Shown in pieces: positions 1 to 3,000 of a stretch of DNA of 13,624 bases; the stretch's first letter is position 1; every line of letters begins with the position of its first letter. Made by a program: the position numbers. The DNA comes from a virus (taxonomy: Duplodnaviria; Heunggongvirae; Uroviricota; Caudoviricetes). The DNA lies in IMG/VR virus record IMGVR_UViG_2711768007_000009; one strand, 5' to 3'.

Positions 1-3000
1 GAACAGGAGGGACAGCTGATAGAAACAGAAGCCACTGGAGCACCTCAAAAACACCATCATACACTAAATCAGTAAGTTGGCAGCATCACCAGCCTTCTTG
101 AGGCTACCACCTGTTTTCAGGTGTCATTCAGACGTGATTTGCCCCAGATTGGGAAAGCACGCTTTTTTCTCAGCTATCGTCCTCTTATTTTGCCGTTACA
201 TTTCTTTTTGCATTCTAATGATTAATTTACAATAATAATATCGGTAATTATTGAGTAATAATAAATTAATTATTGCAAATGTAATTTAATTCCATCTTCG
301 CGTTATATTCCAATCTTTAATCTCCGCATGGAACAAGTTGCATGCGTGACTATATTAAGACGACTTATAACCACCAAAACATTTGCTTTGCAAGCAAAAA
401 CAGTGACCATTGACTCTAAGAAAATTCCGATCTATTGTTAGGGTCATCAAAGTTACTTAACAGTATTCCGAAATGAAAATACAAAGCAAGCTAATTGTCT
501 TATTAAACATTATTATTGCATTTATATTATTTGAGCTTTTAGCTCAAAAATTTGGTTTGAGTACATTATTTTAAAGCAAGATAAACAATATCGGGCACTC
601 TAGTTTTTATAATTAACAATTAAACGTCCATAAAATGTTATTTACTTTTCTTCGCTATTGTCATATCTTAATATAGTGGCTTACGCCACTCTACTTTCAT
701 CACATTTTGTACGTTTATGTACTCGCCATGAAGCTCTTTCATGGCGATTTTTTATTCTTAATCCAAGAACATACTCCCTACCTATAGCAAAATCACTTTT
801 TTAACAAAAGAATAACGTATTTAGGTAATCATTACGAATTTACCCTATAGGTGCTACTGGCCATTCAATATCCGGTGCAGTTGATGTATCAACACGGTTC
901 AGCAACACCCGATACTTTTTCCAAGCTTCCAGCAACAAGGTTTCTTTCTCCGTTGCGATCTCCAGATCCACAGCATCCTGAAGCGGCGCTATATGCTCAC
1001 TGGCTACCTGCATCAGGCTGTTTTTTGTTTCTTCCGCCTCCCGGATCCGGAACAGTTTTTCTGCTTCCGTATCCTTCACCCAGGCTGTGCCGTTCCACTT
1101 CTGAAACTCCCCTTCCGGGGATAACCAGGTGACATTTTCCGGTAATGAGCCGAGTTCAGAAATAAATAACGCGTCGCCGGAAGCCACGTCATAAACCGTT
1201 TTACCCCGATGATCTTCAACGAGATGCCACGATGACTCATCACTGTTGAAAACAGCCACGAAACCAGCCGGAATATCTGGCGGTGCAATATCGGTACTGT
1301 TTGCAGGCAGACCTGTATGAGGCGGAATATATGCGTCACCTTCACCAATAAATTCATTAGTTCCGGCCAGCAGGTTATAAATTTTTATGGTCCGTGCTTG
1401 TTCACTCATTCTGAATGCCATTATGCGAGCCTCACAATATAGTTAAATGCGATGTTTTTGACGGTGTTTTCCGCGTTACCAGCAGCGTTAACGGTGATGG
1501 TGTGTCCATGTGAACCAATCGCAACAGAGTGCGTATGAGCACCAATACCGACAGTATGCGCGTGTGCACCCGCAGATGCTGCTGTGCCGGACAGTGAGTG
1601 TGTATGGTTTCCTTCTGAAGATGATTTACCTACCCATTGGGAGGTGCCACTGGTTAATGAGCCACTGATACCAACCTGATTAGTCCCGCTAACTTGAGTA
1701 CTCCCTGCCGGAAACATTCCAGTAGGTTGACTCCCGCTATTCGTTCTGGGCCCAGTCTGACTATGTTGGTGGGCCCCAGCTGAACTTGTAGAGCCGCTCA
1801 GACTGTGCGTATGCGCCCCGGTGTTATTCGTGGATTTAGTGCCGTAATCAAACGACGATGTGGTTTTCGTCCCCAAATCCGTACTGGATGCGCTGGCGCT
1901 GTGGGTGTGCGATTTAATGCCATCCTGTTCCTGAGACAATACGGCACGACCACTGGCGGGCTTGCCCTTAATCGTCCAGCCACGCATATCAGGGATCACG
2001 CCTGACGGATAAGCGGCTGCAAGTTTCGGGTAAGCAGATTTGTCAAAAGTCTGCCCCTGCATCAGGGCATAACCAGACGGAACGGTATCTGATGGCCACG
2101 GGATTGGTGCACCGACTGGATAAAACTCTGCAGGAGGATGAGCCGAGGTGTAAAGCTGCGCCCACGGCGACCAGTTTGCGTCGGTCGTATCCCGTCGTGA
2201 ACGAATAAATGCCGGAGCATGAGCACCGCTTGTACCACTCCAGCCGATGAGTAACTCACCTTCGCCAACGGCTGTCATCCCTTTCAGGTGAATGATATTT
2301 CCATACGCTGTTGGATATCCGTTGTTATACACCTCGTATAACTCAAGACCTGCTGCCCCCTGCGTATTGTCTGTCAGCGCGGCTACCCGACCTTTTGAAG
2401 CCAGATTAACTGATGATACTGCTGTTCCACCTGACGGTAGCGCCCCGATCTCTGATGCCGTTGGCTTATTTCTGGAGTTATAGTCCCTTCGCCAGCCAGG
2501 TGAATAATCTGTTCCGTGATTAATATAGGTAAACTGGGCGTTGGTTGTTCCGCCACCGCTGGATGTGGTCGGAGTGGTAATGCGGATCGTCATCGCTGAC
2601 TTTATCCCCATTACTTCAATGACAGCTCCGGCGAGATGAATATTACCGCAGCCAGTATCAGTAATGATTTTATTATTGCCATAAGACCAGGAACCCTTGC
2701 ACATCCAGTATGGATGGTTAAATGCTCCCTGAGAATCCAGCCACTCGATAAACTGTGCAGTCGTCCAGTTTCCTGTTGTTGTGCTTACTGACCCACCGAA
2801 GGCACGGCAGGCACCAATATTTTTCGTAAAGGTGTCTTTGCCAGGGATATCCGCACCGTTCTGATCTTTCTGCAGACGTTTCTCAGCATTGTCATTGGCT
2901 GCTTTTACTGCCTTTGGCGTTGCCGCCAGCGTTTCAGACGTGCTGTTGGTCGCGCTGCTTAGCTGGATTATCCCTTTCTGTGCTGTCGTTGCATCCTGTG

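Follow-up and report, generated by a model that had tools for sequence, protein, structure and literature searches.

Positions 1424 to 2122 (minus strand) of the window, that is, of the whole 13,624-nucleotide stretch of Caudoviricetes DNA analyzed here (IMG/VR record IMGVR_UViG_2711768007_000009), very probably encode the distal tip of a lambdoid side tail fiber, a homolog of the iron-needle tips of T4 gp37 and Ur-lambda Stf, as judged from sequence comparison. The window corresponds to the tail-tip end of a lambdoid Escherichia coli prophage, carried on the minus strand, where the ORF list and Pfam searches gave the gene order tape-measure and minor tail genes, J, lom, stf, and tfa (Table 1). 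Three stretches of the window are N-masked (8404 to 8726, 9996 to 10330, and 12656 to 13126). The arrangement found in bases 1 to 5200 is shared by 303 of 5,426 complete E. coli genomes (megablast, at least 80% coverage), with a best match of 96.5% identity. The annotations there read "prophage tail fiber N-terminal domain-containing protein," "tail fiber assembly protein," and "Ail/Lom," and in the nearest genome, ybhB is located a few kilobases from the tail module.

Translation of stf revealed exactly seven His-x-His (HxH) motifs, starting at residues 868, 900, 914, 969, 983, 992, and 1001, which read, in order, SHTHS, AHTHS, AHQHS, NHTHS, AHAHT, AHTHS, and SHGHT. They span residues 868 to 1003 (window positions 1502 to 1909), and from the first motif to the C terminus of Stf there are 162 residues. 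No further HxH was found elsewhere in the 1,029-residue protein, and all 14 of the 14 histidines present in the last 175 residues are inside these motifs. Serine, threonine, and glycine together make up 78 of those 175 residues (45%). The original prediction had described seven such motifs, with the same pentapeptides, in a Gly/Ser/Thr-rich C-terminal tip between positions 1500 and 1910, and the translation matches it exactly in number, sequence, location, and context.

Table 1. Coordinates in the window of the tail-tip genes and of the parts of the predicted Stf tip, with percent identity to T4 gp37 and lambda Stf where aligned
Feature	Stf residues	Position	Strand	Evidence or remark
J		5156-8755	-	
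lom		4603-5085	-	
stf, side tail fiber gene		1421-4510	-	ORF list; 1029 aa from GTG at 4510
Stf Pfam domains phage_tail_N, Phage_fiber_2 (twice), and Collar				Pfam search
Predicted receptor-binding tip module, gp37/lambda Stf type	797-1029	1424-2122	-	2XGF, E=3.7e-84; 65% T4 gp37, 70% lambda orf-314
Collar domain, first part	800-847	1970-2113	-	PF07484; short tail fiber chain 9CUY, E=2.1e-8; over 797-867, T4 83%, lambda 90%
Predicted outgoing needle strand, HxH 1-3 (H868/870, H900/902, H914/916)	868-916	1763-1909	-	Alignments, PF03335; T4 82%, lambda 90%
Predicted hypervariable head domain, 52 aa	917-968	1607-1762	-	Low identity between conserved flanks; T4 15%, lambda 25%
Predicted returning needle strand, HxH 4-7 (H969/971, H983/985, H992/994, H1001/1003)	969-1003	1502-1606	-	Alignments; T4 69%, lambda 86%
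Conserved C-terminal segment	1004-1029	1424-1501	-	Returns to collar (D10) in gp37; T4 88%, lambda 100%
HxH motifs 1 to 7, in order	868-1003	1901-1909, 1805-1813, 1763-1771, 1598-1606, 1556-1564, 1529-1537, 1502-1510	-	Translation
tfa, tail fiber assembly chaperone, 193 aa		840-1421	-	Pfam Caudo_TAP, E=4.6e-44

When the C-terminal 259 residues of Stf were compared with all PDB chains using phmmer, the match was to 2XGF, the receptor-binding tip of T4 gp37 (E=3.7e-84), with query positions 26 to 259, corresponding to the last 234 residues of Stf, aligned to positions 28 to 242 of 2xgf_A. Neither needle strand contains an insertion or deletion in this alignment, and the only gapped, dissimilar segment is the one between HxH 3 and HxH 4. 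BLASTP with full-length gp37 gave 65% identity over gp37 residues 813 to 1026 (E=6e-85). The seven Stf motifs correspond, one by one, to T4 H883/885, H915/917, H929/931, H966/968, H980/982, H989/991, and H998/1000, and all 14 histidines are invariant in a three-way alignment of Stf, lambda, and T4. Thus, the alignment with the solved tip pairs every one of the seven motifs with a T4 motif, and the proposal that their count and spacing are those of gp37 is borne out, with intervals of 32, 14, 55, 14, 9, and 9 residues in Stf versus 32, 14, 37, 14, 9, and 9 in T4, identical except between motifs 3 and 4. The motifs are arranged in two blocks, of three and four, on either side of the head. In T4, H929/H931, which align with Stf H914/H916, are essential iron ligands on the trimer axis and form one of seven such sites (PMC6957217, Islam et al.).

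Profile searches gave a similar picture. The Collar family PF07484 was found ahead of the needle (E=1.2e-12, also 7e-12; 48 bits versus a cut-off of 24), and PF03335 (Phage_fiber), a 14-residue repeat that carries the HxH motif, matched in five stretches (E=1e-8; 34.9 bits versus a cut-off of 20). In PHROGs, the tip belongs to phrog_295, "tail fiber protein" (E=9e-135). An AlphaFold2 model of the tip as a monomer, built on a 72-sequence alignment, had a mean pLDDT of 47, a pTM of 0.20, and almost no secondary structure, which made it unusable; scores this low would be expected of an obligate, intertwined, metal-bound trimer.

Conservation along the tip is sharply divided. Among 110 close database homologs, the histidine columns are 99 to 100% conserved, and identity to the query is about 98% in the flanks and just 17 to 34% over residues 914 to 963 of Stf. 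Conserved flanks around a variable segment are the pattern expected of a fixed scaffold bearing a hypervariable receptor-binding head, and residues 917 to 968 are presumed to be the receptor-contact site. A full-library search with the needle only recovered 326 cluster representatives at an E value of 0.001 or lower, 141 of them at 1e-10 or lower. Among the matches listed with an apparently complete C terminus (n=111), seven HxH motifs was the commonest count (54 proteins), within a range of 3 to 10. One protein from the metagenome/genome database (P0121, 938 residues) contains Stf sequence that begins near residue 458 and stops halfway through the head (ending in SGTSQWV). An unrelated shaft follows, and after it another full gp37-type tip whose head is different, which brings the HxH count to 10; either recombination or chimeric assembly accounts for this protein.

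The T4 tip suggests how this part of Stf might be built. In gp37, as in P2 gpV and the pyocin fibers, three HxH motifs form an octahedral Fe(His)6 site (PMC6116203, Buth et al.), and the T4 collar domain, D10, is composed of residues 811 to 881 plus 1010 to 1026 (PMC6957217), the needle and head together being D11. By homology, three Stf chains would form the collar domain; each chain would leave it as an extended strand with HxH 1 to 3, contribute to a small intertwined head, and run back carrying HxH 4 to 7, so that the needle would have six strands. Metal would be bound at seven levels, at each of which the HxH motifs of the three chains would supply six imidazoles to a single ion buried on the threefold axis, the metal being iron in T4. 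These sites would keep the trimer in register and stiffen it rather than contact the receptor, with receptor specificity carried by the head. Also by homology, folding of the tip would need the cotranscribed, gp38-like Tfa.

The chaperone gene supports the comparison with T4 and lambda. Tfa shares 93% identity with its lambda counterpart and 31% with T4 gp38 (E=3e-20), so that the description of the neighboring protein as gp38-like stands, and its C terminus matches Mu gpU (5YVQ_B, 1.2e-8). The start codon of tfa and the stop codon of stf overlap by one base, as in lambda.

A cluster of motifs in a region of such biased composition could in principle be an accident of a low-complexity tail rich in Gly, Ser, Thr, and His, with no structural role. 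When the last 175 residues, 45% of which are Ser, Thr, or Gly, were shuffled 100,000 times with their composition preserved, the mean was 1.04 HxH motifs and not one shuffle (0/100,000) reached seven; in addition, each Stf motif aligns with a motif of the solved structure 2XGF, and its histidine columns are conserved throughout the 110 homologs. On shuffling and homology together, we reject a chance origin, to which we would give practically no weight. A closer alternative is that the fold is the same and the seven His6 sites hold some other metal (Zn, Ni, or Co) or are partly occupied, since the identity of the metal is not readable from sequence alone and the HxH site of T4 gp12 holds zinc in a crystal of protein that had been refolded with a zinc salt (PMC6116203). 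However, iron is the metal in gp37, P2 gpV, and R-pyocin fibers, homologs of identical HxH geometry that were purified in native form (PMC6957217, PMC6116203), and the ligand residues and their neighbors in Stf are 69 to 90% identical to those of gp37 and lambda, which makes another metal or partial filling quite improbable and iron the expected occupant.

The prophage itself shows signs of decay, and stf could be a relic in which the motifs persist simply because the sequence is young, with no fiber being made. The lom gene, immediately upstream, is cut to 160 residues versus 199 in the nearest genome, having lost 83 bp between 6-bp direct repeats (CTGGCG); the deletion, with its junction near positions 4606 to 4615, brings a TGA into frame. 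Moreover, bases 1 to 90, beside the tfa-side end of the tail module, match an IS1A fragment, and the stf gene of laboratory lambda is itself frameshifted (PMC12617516). Nevertheless, the ORFs of stf (3.1 kb) and tfa have no interruptions and keep the lambda-type one-base overlap of stop and start codons, and the tip allele is maintained, at no less than 95% nucleotide identity, in 25 genomes and at more than one chromosomal site. A relic thus seems unlikely, although less so than the two readings above, and it bears on expression of the fiber, not on the identity of the encoded domain. As for the DNA between these elements, bases 91 to 839 are rich in AT, have no annotation in the nearest genome, and include a terminator-like hairpin at 723 to 747 (plus strand).

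Taking the tip as a gp37-type iron needle, its likeness to T4 gp37 extends to 65 to 71% identity over about 230 residues, seven HxH motifs, the collar, the conserved C-terminal segment, and a homologous chaperone gene downstream (gp38 in T4, Tfa here). In contrast, the head between HxH 3 and HxH 4 is 34 residues long in T4 and 52 in Stf, with 15% identity; the rest of the Stf fiber is unrelated to gp37; T4 also requires gp57A; and T4 is a virulent myovirus, whereas the carrier here is a temperate, siphovirus-type prophage. Ur-lambda, whose Stf corresponds to orf-401 and orf-314 and whose Tfa corresponds to orf-194, is closer, sharing the gene order J-lom-stf-tfa and 85% identity over the N-terminal 326 residues, 70% over the tip, and 93% over Tfa. 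Unlike Stf, the lambda fiber has eight HxH motifs (lambda record L001, 2501 to 3235), its returning strand having one more 9-residue repeat (IGAHQHPVV) and its outgoing strand a duplication of 10 residues (SFDYGTKTTG). Such paired insertions are what would be expected if the two strands were antiparallel and in register, with the lambda needle one rung longer. Lambda also differs in its head (25% identity), and it lacks the Mu S'-like middle module of Stf, which is roughly 250 residues long. Among deposited phage genomes, the closest tips are those of the lambdoid phages mEp332, PhiR26_1, mEp460, and ev099 (82 to 83% over 236 residues; 82.6% over the whole tips of mEp332 and PhiR26_1), but their head allele differs from that of Stf. 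More distantly, the central spikes of P2 (gpV) and phi92 and the R1 and R2 pyocin fibers also use three HxH motifs in an octahedral Fe(His)6 site on a threefold axis (PMC6116203); nevertheless, each of them carries a single site instead of seven in a column, has an unrelated fold (beta-helix spike or pyocin shaft), and shows no sequence homology to the Stf tip.

As a whole, Stf reads as a three-way mosaic, with a lambda N terminus, a Mu S' middle, and a gp37-type tip. Residues 3 to 328 are 85% identical to lambda orf-401, and residues 3 to 96 match the solved lambda Stf collar (9E7M/9MGH). Residues 541 to 726 (positions 2333 to 2890, minus strand) share about 75% identity with the variable part of the Mu tail fiber S' (8JU3; about E=1e-70). 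The corresponding fiber of E. coli SCU-104 shares 96% identity with Stf over the N-terminal 543 residues and has an essentially identical tip, but its middle module is unrelated; since the same two ends surround another middle, the tip would move as a cassette, with a junction just ahead of the collar. The Mu S'-like module could also point to an invertible host-range switch of the Mu G type, but no second copy of the tip or of tfa was found downstream of the tail module, where only AT-rich unannotated DNA and the IS1 fragment are present.

The head sets this fiber apart. Its 156 coding bases were found in 25 of the 5,426 complete E. coli genomes. In NCBI nr, tips that are identical or 97 to 99% identical are annotated as "tail fiber protein [Escherichia coli]" (P0001 to P0004), and the next clusters are at 83%. 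Among phage records, the best head match is 57%, to gp37 heads of T4-like myoviruses, e.g., Shigella phage JK42. The receptor contacts mapped in T4 are I933 to Y949 (PMC6957217), and the sequence of the Stf head is unrelated to those residues. Being 18 residues longer than that of T4 and essentially unrelated to it in sequence, the head does not allow the T4 fold and receptor to be transferred to Stf. Lambda Stf, which resembles gp37, binds OmpC (PMC12617516). Tentatively, the Stf head is an uncharacterized, uncommon specificity allele that may recognize a receptor other than the OmpC of lambda, and the same polypeptide might, in principle, gain a second binding site from the Mu S'-like module; we regard this as possible but rather doubtful.

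Much of the above falls within what is established for this family. Iron needles are routinely recognized by their HxH motifs, and their architecture has reportedly been known since the gp37 structure of 2010 (2XGF, from Bartual et al. in PNAS). The homology between the tips of lambda Stf and gp37, and the finding that lambda Tfa can substitute for gp38, go back to Montag et al. 1989, as that work is cited in PMC12617516 and PMC9659904, and the conservation of HxH motifs in lambda fibers has been noted explicitly (PMC11705849). The iron-needle tip, the Stf/gp37 homology, and the interchangeability of Tfa and gp38 being already known, the finding is a correct rediscovery, and what is specific to this Stf is only its uncharacterized and uncommon head allele. 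Its value lies mainly in correct annotation, in that it locates the receptor-binding end of a prophage side fiber. In addition, residues 917 to 968 are the segment to swap or mutate for a change of host range, which is of use where delivery vectors based on lambda depend on Stf chimeras.

Some minor features of the region deserve mention. Between lom and stf, at about 4516 to 4542 (minus strand), there is a GC-rich hairpin with a T-run. Within 4502 to 4542 (minus strand), the hairpin is followed by a GGGG..ATG at 4504; therefore, Stf probably starts at this ATG with the lambda-like sequence MAVKISG, two residues after the GTG used in the ORF numbering. Between 3100 and 4007, several long ORFs (about 250 residues) run in other frames, on both strands, across the Ala/Ser/Thr-rich stf shaft; these were rejected as genes and are considered compositional artifacts. 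Finally, positions 880 to 1078 (minus strand), wholly within the tfa coding sequence, gave a full-length match to the Rfam family IS009 (RF02111), with 218 bits versus a gathering score of 117.
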